From: a virus
Lineage: Duplodnaviria; Caudoviricetes
Reading direction: 5' to 3' (one strand)
DNA length: 51,789 nucleotides
Virus record (IMG/VR): IMGVR_UViG_3300037155_000029
Span: 1 to 51,789 of that record
Positions 5,265-45,241 of this stretch are shown here, piece by piece (positions within the stretch are counted from its first letter, which is position 1; every line of letters starts with the position of its first letter). The notes under the pieces were generated by a model that searched no databases, was not told where the DNA came from, and saw nothing but the letters and a program-made list of their open reading frames with translations. Position numbers and translations under genes: made by a program.

Positions 5265-6911
5265 TTACATAGTAGCATTAACTAAACTATTGTTTGCCGC
5301 ACCCGTGAAAACAGCGGTTAATTTTTCCTTGAGGCTTCCGATGCCCTCTTTAATATTCATTGTCGAAATGGTAAGATTTGGCATTATTGCGCCGTTATAG
5401 GCAACGTGAATATTGATTGTTTTTTGCCCCTCTGCTTTTGTTTTGGGAGTTGCTACCGGACTTTCGGGTTTTGTGGGAGTTGCTCCGGCTTTGTTTTTAG
5501 GGATTAATCCGCCTGTTAAATCTAATCCTTTTATTCCCGGCATAACTGCAAGTCCACCCATCATACCATAGCCGCCCTGATCTCCTGAACCAATTACAGA
5601 AGCGTTTTGATAATCTTTTGATTTATTATGCCAAATATCAGCGGCCTGATTTGCAGAATCTCTTACATTGTCAACATAATCCTTTAACCCTTGTTTCAGC
5701 ATTTTGCCCCTATCAATAGGAATCATCAAAACACCCAAAATTATTTCACCGGTTGCCTTCCACAGTTTTATAGCAAAATTAAGAGCTAATTTCATATAAT
5801 CCCAAGTTGCGCTCATTGCATTTGTGAAACCGCCGAAATGATGAGATAAGGCAATTACGCCCGCCGTTAATGCAGCCACAGCGAGAACAATCTCAGGAAT
5901 ACCCGTTGACCAAAGAGCCGCACTAAAAAGCCATGTAACCGCTGTTAATGCCGTCCCTGCAATAGTGAGAAAATTGGCCGCTATGCCTAATGCCCATAAT
6001 CCTATTGCGCTCGCATGAGTGTAAATTGTAATAGCCATTAATGCTGTACTAACCGATGCAAGCTCAATAGCTGTATCTGTAATTATTTGTTTGTGATCAC
6101 TCATCCAGCCATACATTTCTTTAATCCATCCGACTAATGAACTTATGCCGCTTGCTATTCCCTCAATAGTTGGAAGCAACTCTTTCATCATTGATTCAAC
6201 CCATTCACCCGTCACAAGTTTAGCCCGCTCCATGAGTTTGTTATACTTTGACATAATATCAGCGTTGAACATCTTTTCGGCAACGCCGGCATAACCAGAA
6301 TGCGCTATTGCTTCCATCATAAATTTTTGCGCTTGAATAAGTTTGCCGCTTGCTTGCAACGTTTCAATAGTTTTCTTTTCCTGAGCCGTAAACATCACAC
6401 CGTATCGCATCATTTTTTGAAGACCTTCAGCCGGATCGTTTAACGCTTTGCCATACATAATTGCAGTTTCAGAAAGCCCGTGATTTGTCTGTTTTGCAAT
6501 ATCGGCAACCAATCCCATAGACTGAGCGAAAACGTCTTTAGTGATTGCGGGAAAAGTCAACATCTGAGACTGCATATCTGTAACCTCGGCGCGACTGGCT
6601 TGTATTTTATTTGAAAGTTCAACGGCGTAGCCTTGCAGGTCTTTCATTCCCATTCCTGCGGCTCCATTTGTTGATTCTAAGTTGGCCTCAACTTTTGCCG
6701 TTACCTGTTCAAGAGCATGAAATGCCTCAAAGCTTTCTTTAGCAAACGAAACGATTTGATAGGCACCAAAAGCCAACCCTATCGCGCCCGCTATTTTCTG
6801 AACACCCGAAAGTGAGCTTTCAAGTTTATTCGCGTGTTCGGTTGCCGACTGAATGCCGGATGAAAGGTTCCCCTTCATATTGAGGACATATTCAACTAAG
6901 GTGCTACTCAT
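5265..6911 (-). CDS. Tape measure protein
   Basis: Ala-rich helical protein with 'GKALNDPAEGL' motif and hydrophobic segments; follows the chaperone. Confidence 0.85.
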   Translation of the reverse strand: MSSTLVEYVLNMKGNLSSGIQSATEHANKLESSLSGVQKIAGAIGLAFGAYQIVSFAKESFEAFHALEQVTAKVEANLESTNGAAGMGMKDLQGYAVELSNKIQASRAEVTDMQSQMLTFPAITKDVFAQSMGLVADIAKQTNHGLSETAIMYGKALNDPAEGLQKMMRYGVMFTAQEKKTIETLQASGKLIQAQKFMMEAIAHSGYAGVAEKMFNADIMSKYNKLMERAKLVTGEWVESMMKELLPTIEGIASGISSLVGWIKEMYGWMSDHKQIITDTAIELASVSTALMAITIYTHASAIGLWALGIAANFLTIAGTALTAVTWLFSAALWSTGIPEIVLAVAALTAGVIALSHHFGGFTNAMSATWDYMKLALNFAIKLWKATGEIILGVLMIPIDRGKMLKQGLKDYVDNVRDSANQAADIWHNKSKDYQNASVIGSGDQGGYGMMGGLAVMPGIKGLDLTGGLIPKNKAGATPTKPESPVATPKTKAEGQKTINIHVAYNGAIMPNLTISTMNIKEGIGSLKEKLTAVFTGAANNSLVNATM

Positions 6912-27677: not shown

Positions 27678-28415
27678 ATGCGAAAAATTGAAATTAAAAA
27701 CAGATGGGACGATTCAGTAATTAAGACCGTTGAAGTCGAGGACGGTGCAAGCCTGAGCGGTGCAAACCTGATCGATGCAGACCTGAGCGGTGCAAACCTG
27801 AGCGGTGCAGACCTGAGCGGTGCAAACCTGAGCGATGCAGACCTGAGCGATGCAGACCTGAGACGTGCAAACCTGAGCGGTGCAAACCTGAGCGGTGCAG
27901 ACCTGAGCGGTGCAAACCTGAGCGATGCAGACCTGAGCGATGCAGACCTGAGCGGTGCAAACCTGAGCGATGCAGACCTGAGCGATGCAGACCTGAGACG
28001 TGCAAGCCTGAGCGGTGCAGACCTGAGACGTGCAAGCCTGAGCGGTGCAGACCTGAGCGATTTACGTCTATCTGAAACCACCGGATTTTTATTGCCCTTA
28101 TGTCCGTCTGAGGGGTCGTTTATTGGATGGAAGAAAGCAGGCGGATATATTGTTAAAATTCAAATTTGCAAGGATGCAAAACGCTCAAATGCAACATCTT
28201 TAAAATGTAGGTGTTCATCTGCAAAGGTTATTTCAATTGAAAACATTGATAGTTCAAAATCTGGACTCAAAAATATTTGCAGTGATCACGACTGTAATTT
28301 TATTTACACTATTGGAAAGGTTGTTTCGGTTGAAAATTTTGATGAACAGCGTTTTAATGAATGTTCATCAGGTATTCACTTTTTTATTAGTCGCGAAATG
28401 GCAGTACAATATTAA
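27678..28415 (+). CDS. Pentapeptide repeat protein with Cys-rich C-terminal domain (DUF5758-like)
   Basis: About 21 A(D/N/S)L(S/R)x repeats, then '[12 protein letters not shown]...KCRCS...ECSSGIHFF'. Confidence 0.9.
27744..28060 (+). repeat. 15-bp tandem repeats encoding pentapeptides
   Basis: GCA(A/G)ACCTGAGCG(G/A)T units and variants. Confidence 0.9.
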
Positions 28416-28600: not shown

Positions 28601-28733
28601 CGATAACGCTTGAGGCTAACCGCATGTAGCGGAATTAGAAGCACTTAACAATCAAAATACAACGAATATGGCAAAGAAAGAAAAACTTACGAAACCCACT
28701 GCCACCGCTATTGCGGTTGAGCCTGTGTTAGGG
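28601..28733 (-). other. attC-like site A
   Basis: TAAC 28604 ... GTTA 28727; stem AGGCTAACCGCATGTAGCGG/CCGCTATTGCGGTTGAGCCT with bulges; ATG 28668 lies in the loop. Confidence 0.75.
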
Positions 28734-29159
28734 TGCGTTATTGTTTCAAAATCTCTTTTTTTAGAGACCATGGAAGCAATTGAAAAACAGTATAAGCACG
28801 ACCAGAAATGTAATACTGCTTTTAAAACATTATTACCAAATGATTACACGAGCGGATATGATAATCACTGGGTAAATAATGAGCTTATTAAATATCTGCA
28901 AAAGGCAATGAATGATGAACATGCCGAAAGTTGGATTGAGTATTTTTTATGGGAGCTTGATTTTGGTAAAAAATACAGACCTGGAAGTGTAATTAGAAAA
29001 GATAAAACACATATTGATTTATCTAATGCTGGTAAACTTTACGATTATTTAATTGAGGAAAATAAATCAAAATGCTTACATCCATTAAGTGAATTAAGGT
29101 TTTGGAATGATTCAACAGTTGAATGTTTGATATGCGGTCATCGGGGGCTGACTTTTTAA
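28668..29159 (+). CDS. Cassette-borne hypothetical protein
   Basis: 163 aa; ends GTTAGGGTGCGTTA/TAATGCACCCTAAC. Confidence 0.7.
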   Translation: MAKKEKLTKPTATAIAVEPVLGCVIVSKSLFLETMEAIEKQYKHDQKCNTAFKTLLPNDYTSGYDNHWVNNELIKYLQKAMNDEHAESWIEYFLWELDFGKKYRPGSVIRKDKTHIDLSNAGKLYDYLIEENKSKCLHPLSELRFWNDSTVECLICGHRGLTF

Positions 29160-29163
29160 TGCA

Positions 29164-29257
29164 CCCTAACGAATTGGGCTATGTGCAGTTGCCCGTGTAC
29201 AAATTTTAAATATTGCACTAAACTTATCGGGCAATTGCATATTAGCCCGTGTTATAA
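29164..29257 (-). other. attC-like site B
   Basis: Stem GGGCTATGTGCAGTTGCCCG/CGGGCAATTGCATATTAGCCC between TAAC 29167 and GTTA 29251. Confidence 0.75.
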
Positions 29258-29268
29258 ACAGTAATTTT

Positions 29269-29514
29269 ATGGAAAAGATTTGTAACCAGCATTTTATAAA
29301 AGATACGCATAGGGATAAAAAATATACATCAACCCTTAAATGCTCGTGCTGTGGAGAAGAAAGTCATTTGACTCAGCCAGCTCCATTTTTGAAAGATTTT
29401 GTAAGATGGTTAAATGATTTTACAAAACTTCACAAAAATAAAGGATGTAATAAACATAAAATAGAGAACCAGGAATGGGCTGCAAAAGAAGTCTCTTTCG
29501 GAGTGGCAATCTGA
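29269..29514 (+). CDS. Cassette-borne hypothetical protein (possible Zn-binding)
   Basis: 81 aa with CSCC and HxxxGC; ends GTTATAAACAGTAAT/ATTATTGTTTATAAC. Confidence 0.65.
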   Translation: MEKICNQHFIKDTHRDKKYTSTLKCSCCGEESHLTQPAPFLKDFVRWLNDFTKLHKNKGCNKHKIENQEWAAKEVSFGVAI

Positions 29515-29521
29515 TTATTGT

Positions 29522-29654
29522 TTATAACGTTTGAGGCTAACCGCATGTAGCGGAAATTGAAACACTTAACAATCAAAATACAACAAATATGACAACGAAG
29601 ACGAAAGCAACAAGACCCACTAAACCCGCTATTGCGGTTGAGCCTGTGTTAGCA
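29522..29654 (-). other. attC-like site C (near copy of A)
   Basis: Same stem arms as A; ATG 29589 lies in the loop. Confidence 0.75.
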
Positions 29655-29903
29655 CCTGTTTTTAAATTTGGTGATTATTGCACAATTGAACAACATAGGT
29701 ACGGGTCAAATAATGAGCATTACCATCATAAGGTAATTGGAACGCTAAAATCAACAGCGTGGGTTGAAGTTCCTGTAATGTATAATCCACAAGAAAATAA
29801 CCATGATGAACTTGTTGATGTGGTTGCTTGCGTTTGCGAGGGGGTTGATGAACGGCATATATTTAGGTACAGAGCTATTGATTGCAAGCCGCTGTTTAAA
29901 TAG
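29589..29903 (+). CDS. Cassette-borne hypothetical protein
   Basis: 104 aa; ends GTTAGCACCTGTTT/AAATAGGTGCTAAC. Confidence 0.65.
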   Translation: MTTKTKATRPTKPAIAVEPVLAPVFKFGDYCTIEQHRYGSNNEHYHHKVIGTLKSTAWVEVPVMYNPQENNHDELVDVVACVCEGVDERHIFRYRAIDCKPLFK

Positions 29904-29904
29904 G

Positions 29905-30050
29905 TGCTAACGTTCGGCGGCTATCTGCCTGTTAAGGCGGGAGACGTGAGGCACGAACGGATCGATAGCCTTAATGGCAGATAATCGTTGTTCTGTGCAG
30001 TTACTTCGCGACGCGGAAATGTTTATAGGAGAGGCCGCCGAGCGTTCAGG
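29905..30050 (-). other. attC-like site D (two alternative GTT ends)
   Basis: Inner stem TATCTGCCTGTTAAGGC/GCCTTAATGGCAGATA; outer stem AACGTTCGGCGGC/GCCGCCGAGCGTT; GTT at 29990 and 30044. Confidence 0.65.
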
Positions 30051-30085
30051 TTCAATTAAAGTTTTGGGAATTTAAAATTTGAAAT

Positions 30086-30265
30086 ATGAGAACAGTTATT
30101 AGAATCACCTTTAAGGATGGACATCAGTTAATCGCTGATATTGACAAATTTGAAATGCTAACGGATAGGGAGGTTGTTACTTTATTTTCGGCCATTTATC
30201 CCGGTTGGTCCTCATTTCAAATTTTAAATGAAGAAACTTTAGGAGCGACCAAAGGAGCGACGTAA
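30086..30265 (+). CDS. Cassette-borne 59-aa protein (not in ORF track)
   Basis: MRTVIRITFKDGHQ...GATKGAT*; ends GTTCAGGTTCAATTA/TAATTGAACCTGAAC. Confidence 0.6.
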   Translation: MRTVIRITFKDGHQLIADIDKFEMLTDREVVTLFSAIYPGWSSFQILNEETLGATKGAT

Positions 30266-30310
30266 TTGAACCTGAACTCATAAATACAACCAATAAAATA
30301 ACGGCTTTTT

Positions 30311-31796: not shown

Positions 31797-31855
31797 TGAG
31801 GGGTGACAGAGTGGTAATGTTTAAACAATCGGAGGTTCGAATCCTTCCCCCTTTT
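31797..31855 (+). ncRNA. tRNA-like element lacking an anticodon arm
   Basis: Acceptor GAGGGG/CCCCTT, D arm ACA-GAGTGGTAA-TGT, T arm GGAGG-TTCGAAT-CCTTC, with only 10 nt between D and T arms. Confidence 0.65.
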
Positions 31856-31869
31856 CAATGTTCGTTGAA

Positions 31870-32198
31870 GTTATTAGTAAAATTCGTTTGGACGCGGGTT
31901 CGACTCCCGCCAGCTCCACGCTAATCGCCAATTAGATTAGCCAGATATGCCTCTCATTAAACATATACTGTGAGATATCGGTTAAAAATGATCGAATAAA
32001 GCCATCTGAAATACGACAGGTAATTAACTCGGAGGTATTTATATGATAAAAATATCTGGCTTTATATTTGGGGCTGACCGGTATTGACAGCGAAGAAATA
32101 AGGTAACGGAGAGCATTAAAGCTGTAAAAGGCAAATCTTTAGAAATGAAAATGGCTGCGTAAGACGTGGACTTTTCAGCCGGGGCTTCGGCTCCGGTT
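31870..32198 (+). ncRNA. ssrA: Circularly permuted two-piece tmRNA
   Basis: The 3' module GACGCGGGTTCGACTCCCGCCAGCTCCA (31891-31918) precedes the 5' module GGGGCTGACCGGTATTGAC (from 32070). Acceptor stem has G3-U70. Tag ORF 32130-32162 encodes GKSLEMKMAA*. Confidence 0.88.
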
Positions 32199-37770: not shown

Positions 37771-38559
37771 ATGTCAAACGAAAATCAGACTCCGGCCACA
37801 CAACAGCCAAAATCAGTTGCTAATTTTTTGAATATGCCCTCAACGTCTAAATTCCTTGAAGCAACACTTCAGGAAAAAAGAGCTGAATTTGTAAGTAACC
37901 TAATCGCCATGTGTGACGGCGATACAAAACTGGCCGAATGTGATCCAGGATCGCTGATGAAATGCGCCTTAAACGCTACGGCCTTAAATCTTCCATTGAA
38001 CAAGAATCTTGGATATGCTTATATTATTCCCTACAAGGGTGTTCCATCGTTTCAGATCGGGTACAAAGGAATCATTCAGCTCGCTATCAGAACCGGTGCA
38101 TACCGCTTCATTAACGCAACCGAAATCAGAGAAGGCGAAATTAAGCGCAATAAAATTACTGGCGAATTGACCTTTTTGGGGGACAATCCAAAGGCAAACA
38201 TTGTTGGATATATTGCCTACCTCGAATTGATGTCAGGTTTTACTGCTTCGCTTTACATGACCGAAAATCAAATTGAAGATCATGCTTTGCGCTTCTCCAA
38301 AATGTATCAATCCGACAAACAGTACAAATCAATGAAAAGCAAATGGAGCGATCCGGATGCACGGCCAAAAATGGCACTTAAAACAGTTCTGAAGGGATTG
38401 CTTGGAACTTATGGACTGATGACAACTGAATTTGCAAAGGCTTTTGAATCCGACAATGACGAAGCCGAACAAGTCACGGGAAATCGTTACGAAGAGGCCG
38501 AGGTTATTCCACAGGATGAACCAAAACAGGAACCAACAATAGAAAAAATTAAACTTTAA
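37771..38559 (+). CDS. recT: RecT/Redbeta-like single-strand annealing protein
   Basis: 'LGYAYIIPY...FQIGYKGIIQLAIRTG...MALKTVLK'. Confidence 0.9.
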   Translation: MSNENQTPATQQPKSVANFLNMPSTSKFLEATLQEKRAEFVSNLIAMCDGDTKLAECDPGSLMKCALNATALNLPLNKNLGYAYIIPYKGVPSFQIGYKGIIQLAIRTGAYRFINATEIREGEIKRNKITGELTFLGDNPKANIVGYIAYLELMSGFTASLYMTENQIEDHALRFSKMYQSDKQYKSMKSKWSDPDARPKMALKTVLKGLLGTYGLMTTEFAKAFESDNDEAEQVTGNRYEEAEVIPQDEPKQEPTIEKIKL

Positions 38560-42469: not shown

Positions 42470-42662
42470 CCTTCAAGCCGGATGGTATGAAACGACTCAA
42501 TATATTGACGGAAGAACTGTAAAGACTATGGTTTTTTACGATTCTGATTCGGGAAAGTTTTACGATCTAAAATTAGATGAGGTCGTGAAGCCTTCTGGAA
42601 GTTTGAAATTTAAGTTTAAAGACGGGTTGATTTTGGTCGATAAGGAGGATGATGCGTGTTAG
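42459..42662 (+). CDS. Hypothetical protein
   Basis: 67-aa ORF whose stop lies in GTTAG at 42658. Confidence 0.45.
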   Translation: MKNNLQAGWYETTQYIDGRTVKTMVFYDSDSGKFYDLKLDEVVKPSGSLKFKFKDGLILVDKEDDAC

Positions 42663-42728
42663 TTGTCTGGGCGGTAAAACTGGCACGAATTTGATTAAAA
42701 GTGATAAAGTAAAAAAAGAAAAATAGCG

Positions 42729-43217
42729 ATGGAATACTTAATAGATAATGAAAAGCACAAGGTAATTTACATCGAATATCAAGATGGATTACCTCATAGC
42801 GTTGTTACTATATTTTTTGTAGATACGGCTAAAGAACCTTATTGGAGACCTGAATATTGGGATTTTTTCGCAAACGAAGGTGATAAAAATGATTTAAGAG
42901 CTTATAGTTCTGGTTCTGGTGGTGATGATAAAAAGATTCAAGCTCCTCAATATATTGATGGTTATTTAGGCGCAAGGTATTGGATGGCTGAATATATTGA
43001 ATTTGATGGAGAGCCAAAAAACATAAAAAGATTGAAAAGCCCTAAATTATTAAGGTGTTATGAAAATTCGAGAAACCCATTTAAAGTTGCCGAAATAACA
43101 CATAGTTGTGAATATTGCGATAGATGTGGACATTACTCTACTGAATTTTGTGATGAACACAAATATGATGATGATGAAGGAAATGTCAGATATAAAGATG
43201 ATGATTCTTACGAATAG
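42729..43217 (+). CDS. Hypothetical protein in probable truncated cassette
   Basis: 162 aa with C-terminal CxxC; flanked by GTTAGTTG (42658) and CAACTAAC (43287). Confidence 0.65.
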   Translation: MEYLIDNEKHKVIYIEYQDGLPHSVVTIFFVDTAKEPYWRPEYWDFFANEGDKNDLRAYSSGSGGDDKKIQAPQYIDGYLGARYWMAEYIEFDGEPKNIKRLKSPKLLRCYENSRNPFKVAEITHSCEYCDRCGHYSTEFCDEHKYDDDEGNVRYKDDDSYE

Positions 43218-43287
43218 CGGTGCGCTGGCTTTTTCTTTTTTGGTCAAGTTCATACGAACTTCATTAAAAGCGAAAAACCAGCCTTGC

Positions 43288-43418
43288 AACTAACGGTATC
43301 CAGCTATGTGCAGGGCGGGATGCGGAGAGAAAATTTGTCAAGCTGCACAAACCAACGGGCGGGTTAAGTCGCTCGAATTACAAACAATACCCGACTTGAC
43401 ATATAGCTGGGGTTATAA
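43288..43418 (-). other. attC-like site E
   Basis: Stem CCAGCTATGTGCAGGGCGGG/CCCGACTTGACATATAGCTGG between TAAC 43291 and GTTA 43412. Confidence 0.7.
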
Positions 43419-43431
43419 ACAGTTTTCAATC

Positions 43432-43815
43432 ATGGTAATTTATCAACACACAGACACAAACGGTTATTCAATTTTTGATACCGATCCAGATTTAAAATAC
43501 ATATCTGGAAGAAGTAGCACAATGACAAAAACAATGGAAGCCAAGCCGACTAAAAAACCACATCAAAGAAAAGAAGAAGGAGTTTATTCAATCGGAGATG
43601 TGTTTTTTGTAAATCACGGCAAAAATGGTTCTTGGTGTGAAATAACAGCATTAGAACCGATTAAGTCAAATATTGCAGACAAGATTAAAAACTGCAATAC
43701 GATGGCAGAACTTGATACTCTCAGAATAGAAATTGTGTCCGATAAAGAAAACTTTGTCGAAAATCAAAAACTATTCTTGTCCGCGAAAAACAGGATTAAG
43801 CGCAACGCTTTTTAA
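43432..43815 (+). CDS. Cassette-borne hypothetical protein
   Basis: Probable start MVIYQH; frame is open from 43306. Confidence 0.6.
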   Translation: MVIYQHTDTNGYSIFDTDPDLKYISGRSSTMTKTMEAKPTKKPHQRKEEGVYSIGDVFFVNHGKNGSWCEITALEPIKSNIADKIKNCNTMAELDTLRIEIVSDKENFVENQKLFLSAKNRIKRNAF

Positions 43816-43818
43816 ATT

Positions 43819-43964
43819 GTTTAACGCTCGGCGGCTAAACCTTCGTTTAACCCGCCTTTGAGGTACGAAAAGGAGAGAGGGTTAAATGAGGTTTAATCGT
43901 TGTTAGGGTCACGTTCGTTCGCGACACTATAAGGCCTTTAGGTACAGGCCGCCGAGCGTTAGGG
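43819..43964 (-). other. attC-like site F (two alternative GTT ends; related to D)
   Basis: Outer stem AACGCTCGGCGGC/GCCGCCGAGCGTT; inner stem TAAACCTTCGTTTAACCC/GGGTTAAATGAGGTTTA; GTTAGGG at 43902 and 43958. Confidence 0.65.
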
Positions 43965-43999
43965 ATCAATTTGAATACCGAGAATTTAAAATTTTAGTC

Positions 44000-44251
44000 A
44001 TGAAAGAAATTATTAAAGATTTAAATCAGATCAAAGTAAATCTGCAATTCGCAGTTGATTTTAGAGACGGGCTCGTTGTTATATCGGAAATTAAAAAAGT
44101 GGACGCCCTGATACTAAGGCTCTCTAAAATTTTAAATGAAGGGATTCAAGTGAACGATAAATCAGTTTGCCCTAAATGCGGAAGTAGTAATTATATAAAT
44201 ACCTACTTAATTGAAGAGTGCAAAGATTGTTGTTGGATCAGGGCAAAATGA
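44000..44251 (+). CDS. Cassette-borne zinc-ribbon protein
   Basis: CPKC...CKDC; ends GTTAGGGATCAATT/AATTGATCCCTAAC. Confidence 0.65.
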   Translation: MKEIIKDLNQIKVNLQFAVDFRDGLVVISEIKKVDALILRLSKILNEGIQVNDKSVCPKCGSSNYINTYLIEECKDCCWIRAK

Positions 44252-44272
44252 TTTGGAGCGAACGCAATTGAT

Positions 44273-44402
44273 CCCTAACGTTGGGTATATGGCAAGTTGG
44301 GGATTAAAAAGTGCTACCCTGTCGAGCCGCACGAAAGAAAATTAACAGCACAAATATTCAAATTGGAACGACACCCCCAATTTGCTATATACATTGTTAG
44401 GG
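44273..44402 (-). other. attC-like site G
   Basis: Stem GTATATGGCAAGTTGGGG/CCCCAATTTGCTATATAC between TAAC 44276 and GTTA 44396. Confidence 0.75.
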
Positions 44403-44422
44403 TGCGTTTATTCTTAATCAAA

Positions 44423-44614
44423 ATGGAACATAAAATTAAAGAGTTAGAAAACTATTTAAACGATTTAGACAACCTAATAGACACAGGGTGGTTTCCAGAA
44501 GAAAGTGTAAAAGATTGTACATTTTATCACAAGGATTTAACGCTTCGTGATTTTGTATCAAAAGGTCGTGAATATATCCGACAGTATTTAATCTCTGAAA
44601 AGGGTGTTTCTTAA
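44423..44614 (+). CDS. Cassette-borne hypothetical protein
   Basis: MEHKIKE...; ends GTTAGGGTGCGTTTA/TAAATGCACCCTAAC. Confidence 0.6.
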   Translation: MEHKIKELENYLNDLDNLIDTGWFPEESVKDCTFYHKDLTLRDFVSKGREYIRQYLISEKGVS

Positions 44615-44619
44615 ATGCA

Positions 44620-44749
44620 CCCTAACGGTCGCAGGTTTGACCAGTAAAGGAATTAAAATAACTAAATTATCAAATTATGAAAAACTTTATTAAGCGCGCT
44701 ATTGATCGCATACGCAGGAAACCTTTATTGGTTAAACCTGTTGTTAGCC
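44620..44749 (-). other. attC-like site H
   Basis: Stem CAGGTTTGACCAGTAAAGG/CCTTTATTGGTTAAACCTG; ATG 44677 lies in the loop. Confidence 0.75.
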
Positions 44750-45084
44750 ACCGTTTTATTAAACACCAAGACAAAACAAATTGGGGCGTATCAATTCACA
44801 TGCTTGAAGAAAGTGGGAGGGCTTATGCCAGAACATATTGGTATGATGATGATGAAACAGTGGTATTTTTAGAAGGATTGCATGTTGATAAAGAAGCGAG
44901 GGGGAATGGCATTGCTTCTAAATTGTTAGACTTACACATTCAGATAGCGAAAGATAATCATGCCAGTTCTCAACTAAAGGTAAAAGAAGGAACGTGGGTG
45001 TATGAATGGTATAAACGCAGGGGATATAAGGACTATGTAAAATGCAAAGAAAGCAATGACATTTGGCTGTATATGCTGCCTTAA
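44677..45084 (+). CDS. Cassette-borne GNAT acetyltransferase
   Basis: 'LHVDKEARGNGIASKLL...WYKRRGY'; ends GTTAGCCACCGTTT/AAATGGTGGCTAAC. Confidence 0.85.
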   Translation: MKNFIKRAIDRIRRKPLLVKPVVSHRFIKHQDKTNWGVSIHMLEESGRAYARTYWYDDDETVVFLEGLHVDKEARGNGIASKLLDLHIQIAKDNHASSQLKVKEGTWVYEWYKRRGYKDYVKCKESNDIWLYMLP

Positions 45085-45162
45085 ATGGTGGCTAACTCAT
45101 TGCTATACGTAATGTATATATACACCCAATTAGGCTGTATATACGCAATTAATATAATGTTT

Positions 45163-45191
45163 AAAGCCGTCCCATAATCGAGGCGGCCTTT
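45163..45191. terminator. Terminator between convergent early and late arms
   Basis: AAAGCCGTC...GGCGGCCTTT hairpin. Confidence 0.5.
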
Positions 45192-45241
45192 ATTAAACGC
45201 TTTTGCGTCGAACCGGAACTACTCATTCCGGCGTGGTGAAA

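Follow-up and report, generated by a model that had tools for sequence, protein, structure and literature searches.

The nearest described counterparts of the locus presented here are cassettes found in phages that carry no integron integrase (IntI). Among 10,705 phage genomes, 17 clusters of attC sites lacking integron integrases (CALINs) have been reported, and the integrase IntI1 recombined five of the six attC sites of virulent phages that were assayed, one of them from the Polaribacter phage P12002L, which was among three phages tested (Qi et al., 2023, PMC9892861). T4-type phages offer a second precedent, the promoter-early stem-loops (PeSLs), conserved stem-loop modules between small variable genes for which a part in gene shuffling has been proposed (PMC2839356, PMC4122927). 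Here we describe two arrays of small genes and DNA hairpins in IMG/VR virus record IMGVR_UViG_3300037155_000029 (Caudoviricetes), a complete virus genome of 51,789 bp with direct terminal repeats that was analysed at its full length and is called the window below. Array 1 spans 28608-30277 (four units, hairpins A-D) and array 2 spans 42658-45096 (five tiled units with GTT...AAC inverted ends and four hairpins, E-H, of 116-132 nt between them). We read both as rows of mobile cassettes belonging to an integron-like system common to Bacteroidota and their phages, with a probability of roughly 0.7.

In each array, units alternate with hairpins and no gap separates them. The spacers between units measure 80-133 nt, and each of them, at all eight sites A-H, runs from AAC to GTT. 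The start of a unit is complementary to its far end over 9-15 nt in seven of the nine window units and more weakly in those starting at 42658 and 43412 (Table 1). Both arrays, together with many others, terminate in a bare AAC without a hairpin. The first-pass annotation had proposed that array 2 shares end and hairpin families with array 1, and the repeats that it named are genuine: GTTAGGGTGCGTT (28727 and 44396), GTTATAAACAGT (29251 and 43412) and GCTATGTGCAG, common to hairpins B and E (29178 and 43303), each occur twice in the window, with 0-0.02 occurrences expected by chance. Hairpins D and F, also taken for relatives, are 74% alike over 70 nt (repeat family D5) with the same CGGCGGC/GCCGCCG outer stem, and hairpins A and C are 84% alike over 129 nt (repeat family D2). 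Inverted ends do tile the array as had been suggested, but their families are tied to hairpin types and are not strictly specific to single cassettes.

Short complementary ends by themselves are common. Genome-wide, 8-mer GTT/AAC pairs are found at chance level (104 versus 91 +/- 14 in shuffles), so the signal lies in the tiling and in the length of the match and not in the number of pairs. At k=9, chains of at least three units appeared only in the window and in its close relative L124 among 145 loci; at k=8 there were two such chains in 1.105 Mb of unrelated viral loci, a control set made of the at least 120 unrelated GC-rich viral contigs (1.1 Mb) matched by a 14-mer of the D/F outer stem. 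The end stem was dissected in 72 of 117 distinct units, chosen with position 11 ignored and limited to units of at most 1,100 nt with an open reading frame (ORF) over at least half their length and at least two G/C at positions 4-10, a filter that dropped 45. In these, the cassette ends form a stem of 14-15 bp and are not 10-nt repeats. Positions 1-9 are paired by selection and position 10 in 50 of the 72; at position 11 a G lies opposite a T on the coding strand in 56 units and a Watson-Crick pair is seen in only five; pairing returns at positions 12-14 (63-66 of 72), declines at position 15 (43 of 72) and is random at positions 16-18. A strict signature, which demanded the G.T at position 11, pairing at two or more of positions 12-14 and the presence of an ORF, retrieved 124 units from 1.02 Mb of array-bearing records, two from the 1.105 Mb of unrelated viral loci and none from 0.28 Mb of other phage loci, and no signature units were present in relatives recovered with an endonuclease as bait (at most 50% identity). 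Five window units pass it. The ends themselves are diverse, with 76 different 10-mers among 118 distinct units, each with its complement at the far end, and GTTR in 114 of the 118. One unit of L124 (11937-12593) has, within its outer GTTACC.../...GGTAAC ends, a second pair of perfect inverted repeats of 21 nt (GTTTTAAAAAATTATAAAAAT); Pfam has no family for the 206-aa gene of this unit, and an earlier guess of a methyltransferase was withdrawn.

Folded as DNA, the plus strand gives z scores of -1.80 (E), -5.18 (F), -2.72 (G) and -3.10 (H), and the minus strand -0.86, -5.23, -1.55 and -1.29, respectively. Of the four hairpins announced for array 2, F, G and H lie well beyond shuffles on the plus strand, while E alone is weak. 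Considering the hairpins alone, outside the selection around position 11, the coding strand folds better in 50 of 67, worse in 15 and equally in two, and the base after AAC is a G in 57 of these 67 distinct hairpins. Most of the strand asymmetry comes from G.T wobbles, with contributions from a bulged G in A and C and a bulged T in some units. An internal loop lies beside the AAC/GTT box in G, H, A and C and is absent from D and F. By eye the hairpins have no T runs, and none matched an Rfam family. The branched hairpins F (43902) and D (29990) each have a second, inner GTT site, and the 8-mer GTTAGGGT was confirmed in F.

Several hairpin types recur far beyond the window. The right arm of hairpin G is present exactly in 30 IMG/VR contigs, with the whole element of about 115 nt conserved, loops included. 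Every one of these contigs differs 5' of the AAC, while on the 3' side there are few end types (GTTAGGGTGCGTTTAT is the commonest), and in 26 of 31 copies the complement of the end reappears 200-420 nt onward, the ORFs so enclosed being unrelated; at least eight different ORFs lie within the same end pair as unit 4 of array 2 among the other G-type copies. The conserved far end, hairpin and near end are contiguous only when the cassette is read as a circle, which is the logic of an integron cassette. Hairpin H is found in seven other viral contigs and A/C-type hairpins in three other records, twice in one array with a G hairpin (L150, L174). IMG/VR contained no exact copy of the E-type right arm, and blastn against the loci selected by G found nothing for hairpins B, E and H. 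In a Paludibacter metagenome-assembled genome (L180, at about 5280-5320 of the locus), a spacer in a CRISPR array equals the right arm of hairpin G plus GTTAGGGGC, and the next spacer resembles a hairpin left arm. The match to hairpin G provides a clue to the host of G-bearing phages.

Hairpins of types A, C and H give the downstream gene its start codon and about 20 residues. In all eight copies of hairpin H the ORF starts 63-66 nt before the GTT, and the leader (44677-44742 in the window; L204-L210 elsewhere) is fused in frame to eight different proteins in the eight contigs. This leader is basic, ends in KPLLVKPVV and is closely similar in six of the eight, L205 and L210 keeping just the PLLVKPVV end. 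The A/C hairpins supply a start and a leader ending in AIAVEPVL.

The turnover of the arrays between relatives bears most directly on mobility. In L124, hairpin D and its unit are 100% identical at the place of array 1, with three other units upstream; this identity is bounded by the AAC before D on one side and by the AAC after its unit on the other. One of these upstream units is headed by a G-type hairpin, in the window a type of array 2, and another has the GTTAGTTGCA ends of the window unit at 42658, which in L124 bound an unrelated 68-aa gene. With NinG as bait, IMG/VR yielded only distant relatives and metagenomes mostly short contigs, of which L215 alone was informative. L215 shares the left-flank 67-aa gene and the right-flank terminator of array 2, with hairpin E and then two different units between them (Pfam gave only a sub-threshold Radical_SAM hit for its cargo gene). 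An independent sample, X3, supplies two short contigs without a single mismatch to 43961-44249; contigs of this sample also attach another final unit to the right flank of the window exactly at the AAC, and another hairpin to the left-flank gene. In all these comparisons the identity between relatives begins or ends at AAC. A unit kept its upstream hairpin in the company of other neighbours in three independent cases (window/L124, L178/L124, and L156 and L170 versus L162 and L163), and the reverse was seen in no case: the hairpin belongs to the downstream gene and not to the upstream one. These exchanges and the recurrence of hairpin families in other viral records support the earlier proposal that both loci draw on one cassette pool; the motifs are neither confined to this genome nor held at fixed positions in an invariant gene order. 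The phages compared share almost no proteins with the window phage: only seven window ORFs have any BLASTP match (E<=1e-4), each in one genome, among six complete array-bearing genomes and P12002L.

On the coding strand a cassette reads [C - hairpin of about 40-170 nt - GTT N7 G N3-4 - ORF - N3-4 T N7 AA]. Closed to a circle, the two ends and the hairpin form one long imperfect hairpin with a base stem of 14-15 bp, the AAC/GTT box and the G.T at position 11, and only the coding (plus) strand folds well, because the other strand has C.A mismatches at the wobbles. As a mechanism, these features suggest that a tyrosine recombinase cuts and joins cassettes at AA|C on the folded plus strand, the junction lying on the 5' arm, and new cassettes would enter at the last AAC of the array. 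The integron mechanism predicts both the hairpin plus gene unit and the AA|C junction if the coding strand is the recombined one. Since phage genes lie on the folding strand, the site precedes the gene; taken from the opposite strand, the cassettes have a classical form with antisense genes.

The phage need not encode the recombinase, and this one does not: profile searches with PF00589, TIGR02249 and Y1_Tnp found no match in the complete 51.8-kb genome, and PF00589 was detected in two of 31 hairpin-bearing records (one of the six that are at least 90% complete). The shuffling enzyme is probably a simpler Xer-like host enzyme that acts in trans, and not IntI. In phage record G011, a 269-aa Xer-like recombinase, P0034, starts 36 nt past the terminal AAC|TATTATATATC of an array of five units and points the same way as the array. 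Among 401 sampled Bacteroidia genomes, 201 encode relatives of P0034 (E<=1e-40), a tally that includes the unpublished genome G126, with 37-49% identity among the matches listed. We consider its family the best candidate; it lies beside the terminal AAC in one phage and in Bacteroidia chromosomes. All four chromosomal loci that were extended contain arrays beside the recombinase gene (five units in L252, about ten in L253, further units in L254 and L256), with spacers of about 118 nt and the same AAC-G...GTT N7 G.T grammar, and 14 of 30 loci have a motif AAC|T[TCA][AGT]T[TA]TA at a distance of 102-123 nt past the recombinase gene. Phage arrays L124, L164, L178, L149, L162, L168 and L215 end in the same motif. 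Many P0034-type genes were 100-130 nt from a contig end (e.g., L235, L251), and in two cases the contig begins right at the insertion motif's AAC, as though the assembly had broken at a variable or repeated array. The Paludibacter metagenome-assembled genome (G031:C1:1607012-1619835) has a 307-aa tyrosine recombinase in four tandem copies about 4 kb apart.

The first alternative to consider is that the sites are classical attC sites in ordinary CALINs, moved during infection by an IntI of the host. AAC/GTT triplets, complementary ends and the imperfect hairpin, whose internal loop adjoins the AAC/GTT box, are all attC-like, and IntI1 uses an attC of the Bacteroidota phage P12002L (PMC9892861), whose methyltransferase region has the same hairpin / GTTxxxx-gene-xxxxAAC layout and a bare AAC end, although the attC assayed may be another hairpin. 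On the other hand, exact GTTRRRY is found in seven of the 118 units, the base stem has 14-15 bp instead of 7, and the genes are inverted. P0034 matches the IntI model (TIGR02249) in two stretches around a middle part but stays below the cut-offs both of IntI (129 versus 265 bits) and of archaeal XerA (187 versus 220). TIGR02249 exceeded its cut-off in one of the 401 Bacteroidia genomes, with the top five candidates of each scored, and did not do so in either of the two genomes associated with hairpin G; the sole positive (L203) has a small ordinary integron that is uninformative about the phage hairpins. Complete integrons have been reported in Bacteroidetes only as rare, isolated cases (IntegronFinder 2.0, PMC9024848). 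We regard this explanation as unlikely.

A second explanation is suggested by the setting of the arrays. Structural genes are on the minus strand, early genes on the plus strand between 27.3 and 45.1 kb, and the arrays are located terminally in early transcription units. The early region encodes RecT (37771-38559), a metallo-beta-lactamase (MBL)-fold nuclease, NinG, HNH nucleases and replication proteins. PeSL-like regulatory hairpins might be shuffled by homologous recombination through RecT and the nuclease, with no site-specific enzyme, and the start codons and leaders within hairpins, as well as the mosaic G hairpins that exist (L158), would fit. It leaves unexplained why each unit has its own complementary ends and a fixed G.T at position 11, why breakpoints fall exactly at AAC, why hairpins are linked to the downstream gene only, and why the same grammar appears beside a chromosomal tyrosine recombinase; we find it quite improbable.

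The structures could also serve at the RNA level alone, as processing or stability hairpins on a messenger RNA (mRNA) closed by a 14-bp stem with G.U, mobility being ordinary phage mosaicism. In the phages the G.T wobbles are indeed on the coding strand and the hairpins are transcribed as leaders. In the chromosomal arrays, the reverse of the phage polarity is seen: in four of four loci the ORFs are on the strand opposite the G.T strand, and the mRNA there would hold C.A mismatches. The asymmetry therefore follows site polarity, that is, the DNA strand, and not the mRNA. Together with the lack of an Rfam match and the conserved parts being contiguous only in a circular permutation of the DNA, this makes an RNA-only role very unlikely. 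Hardly credible, finally, is an inverton model, in which a host invertase would flip every gene as a segment of its own: 10-15 bp inverted repeats flank every unit and the Bacteroidales are known for invertible regions, but the units of an array are co-directional in every assembly examined, none of the contigs compared has a strand-changing joint, and inversion explains neither the hairpins nor the turnover of neighbours.

Several observations weigh against the cassette interpretation or parts of it. The ends of units 1 and 2 of array 2 are poor or decayed, and the fold of hairpin E is barely better than that of shuffled sequence. Among the assembled contigs compared there are variant neighbours but no circles or clean excisions. 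Homologous exchange inside hairpins also happens, and the interpretation does not account for the unrelated ORFs between identical ends. As regards the enzyme, the 201 of 401 genomes may include paralogues unrelated to arrays, adjacency having been seen in the 14 of 30 loci and the four extended ones; hairpins A-H have no blastn match in the chromosomal arrays examined, the hairpin G 21-mer is in no chromosomal array among the genome-contig matches, and the terminal flanks of the window (AAC|TCATAAATAC, AAC|TCATTGCTAT) fit the attI-like motif only in part.

The features of both arrays are listed in Table 1. The predicted GNAT cargo was recovered by Pfam (PF00583, E=1.3e-8). For the supposed zinc-ribbon protein, encoded at 42729-43217, C130, C133, C141 and H144 are invariant across 27 homologues, but no Pfam or PHROG family matched it; three distant viral contigs with homologues of this protein had no hairpins or matching ends. 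GNAT was the only cargo of array 2 with a family match (the 127-aa product of 43432-43815 has none in Pfam or PHROG), there was none for the left-flank 67-aa gene either, and array 2 had no blastn match in GenBank phages.

Table 1. Positions of the cassette units, hairpins and flanks of the two arrays in the window.
Feature	Position	Strand	Matched ends (nt)	Remarks
Left-flank backbone gene, 67 aa	42459..42662	+		Stop overlaps GTTAG of unit 1; near-identical gene in L215, hairpin E directly after it
Array 2 unit 1, no own hairpin	42658..43294	+	8 only	Ends GTTAGTTG/CAACTAAC; ORF 42729-43217, 162 aa, Cys/His motif
Hairpin E, 117 nt	43295..43411	+		About 95% identical copy in L215, with other flanks on both sides
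Array 2 unit 2	43412..43825	+		5' end GTTATAAACAGT; far end decayed (TGTTTAAC), 2-nt gap; ORF 43432-43815, 127 aa
Hairpin F, 132 nt, branched	43826..43957	+		Relative of hairpin D
Array 2 unit 3	43958..44279	+	14	Ends GTTAGGGATCAATT/AATTGATCCCTAAC; ORF 44000-44251, 83 aa
Hairpin G, 116 nt	44280..44395	+		Two G.T wobbles in lower stem, plus strand
Array 2 unit 4	44396..44626	+	10	Ends GTTAGGGTGC-G-TTTA / TAAA-T-GCACCCTAAC; ORF 44423-44614, 63 aa
Hairpin H, 116 nt	44627..44742	+		Holds ATG (44677) and first 22 codons of GNAT gene
Array 2 unit 5	44743..45096	+	10	Ends GTTAGCCACC/GGTGGCTAAC; GNAT acetyltransferase body (ORF 44677-45084)
Array-terminal flank	45097..45210	+		AAC|TCATTGCTATACG..., small hairpin, then terminator-like hairpin common to L215
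Hairpin A	28608-28726	+		ORF 28668-29159 starts inside
Array 1 unit after A	28727-29170	+	10
Hairpin B	29171-29250	+
Array 1 unit after B	29251-29528	+	10
Hairpin C	29529-29647	+		ORF 29589-29903 starts inside
Array 1 unit after C	29648-29911	+	10
Hairpin D	29912-30043	+
Array 1 unit after D	30044-30277	+	15	Array end AAC|TCATAAATAC

The rest of the genome offers a few further observations. The large terminase has 33% identity with those of Flavobacterium phages. A pentapeptide-repeat protein with a DUF5758 tail (27678-28415, 18 tandem 15-nt repeats) lies just upstream of array 1. Rfam detects a permuted transfer-messenger RNA (RF04321, 66.3 bits) at 31859-32162 and, just 5' of it, a transfer RNA-like element (RF00005, 33 bits) at 31797-31855; ARAGORN calls neither in 31797-32162. 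A 20-nt motif of the ATGTTnnnnAACAGCTTT type occurs three times (26871, 30497, 35680), one copy directly 3' of array 1, and a 29-nt repeat twice (27207, 40731; 97% identity); both might serve as early promoters or operators.

For capturing and shuffling single genes the integron is the textbook example; integrons are thought to be tied to one specialised integrase and are reported to be rare in Bacteroidota. If the cassette interpretation is true, a parallel system would exist in a highly abundant bacterial phylum and in many of its unrelated phages, and it would account for the precise exchange of small accessory genes by virulent phages that have no recombinase. Going further, there may be a second integron lineage, independent of IntI, in Bacteroidota and their phages, with a short Xer-like recombinase by a simple insertion site (AAC|TYGTTTATA), long hairpins and a 14-15 bp base stem marked for its strand by the G.T; phages without the enzyme would keep their own pool of reversed polarity, in which the site doubles as translation start and can fuse a common leader to many proteins, and would borrow the host enzyme for reshuffling during infection. 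For this wider proposal the arguments on either side appear to us evenly poised. The many ORFs behind one type of site are a natural case bearing on the old question of how cassettes are born, and the P0034-family recombinase and the G.T-marked sites form a testable enzyme/site pair. The hairpin families found across phages are a practical marker as well, and a host CRISPR spacer already targets one of them.

Set beside the known systems, the arrays combine features of several. A complete integron has an IntI gene beside the array, and neither TIGR02249 nor PF00589 is present in the 51,789-bp genome. A CALIN in the sense of IntegronFinder has at least two attC sites called by its covariance model and no integrase nearby, and PeSL cassettes couple an early promoter to a terminator stem-loop, conserved between genes. 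The AAC/GTT at the hairpin base, the crossover there and a cassette start complementary to the start of its attC are attC-like. The core-site consensus of classical attC sites is GTTRRRY / RYYYAAC, and the sites described here depart from it. Strand choice at attC relies on extrahelical bases and an unpaired central spacer. An integron cassette has its ORF opposite the folding strand with the attC downstream, an order found in the chromosomal arrays and not in the window or the other phages. Vibrio-type sedentary integrons associate one attC family with many unrelated small ORFs, have cassette ends complementary to the attC start, and have, at one array end, the recombinase together with a simple insertion site. 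Compared with them, the recombinase here is short, Xer-like, below the IntI cut-off and co-oriented with the genes in the chromosomal arrays, and the phage cassettes carry their gene on the folding strand. In elements of the CTX-phi type, a host Xer recombinase acts on a one-strand hairpin and whole genomes integrate at dif, whereas in the present case it is single genes that move within arrays, and a dedicated paralogue beside the arrays is the candidate enzyme.

PeSLs, as far as the cited sources go, are promoter/terminator motifs presumed to work by homologous recombination, in contrast to the unit-specific complementary ends, invariant AAC/GTT and exact junctions of our arrays (PMC2839356, PMC4122927). 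P12002L differs from the window in its shorter hairpins and the absence of the G.T. The part of the phage CALIN study covered here describes no 14-15 bp G.T end stem, families across unrelated phages, start codons within sites or Xer-like recombinase (Qi et al., 2023, PMC9892861). Our literature searches on the Xer-like system and on phage arrays returned only that study and the PeSL papers as related work, and found neither the end-stem grammar, hairpin families across unrelated phages, reversed polarity with in-site start codons, nor a link of such arrays to an Xer-like recombinase and chromosomal arrays. As described in that source, phage CALINs are alike in being rows of small genes bounded by hairpins, in virulent phages that lack an integrase, and the window arrays probably belong to this kind, the closest one published (Qi et al., 2023, PMC9892861).

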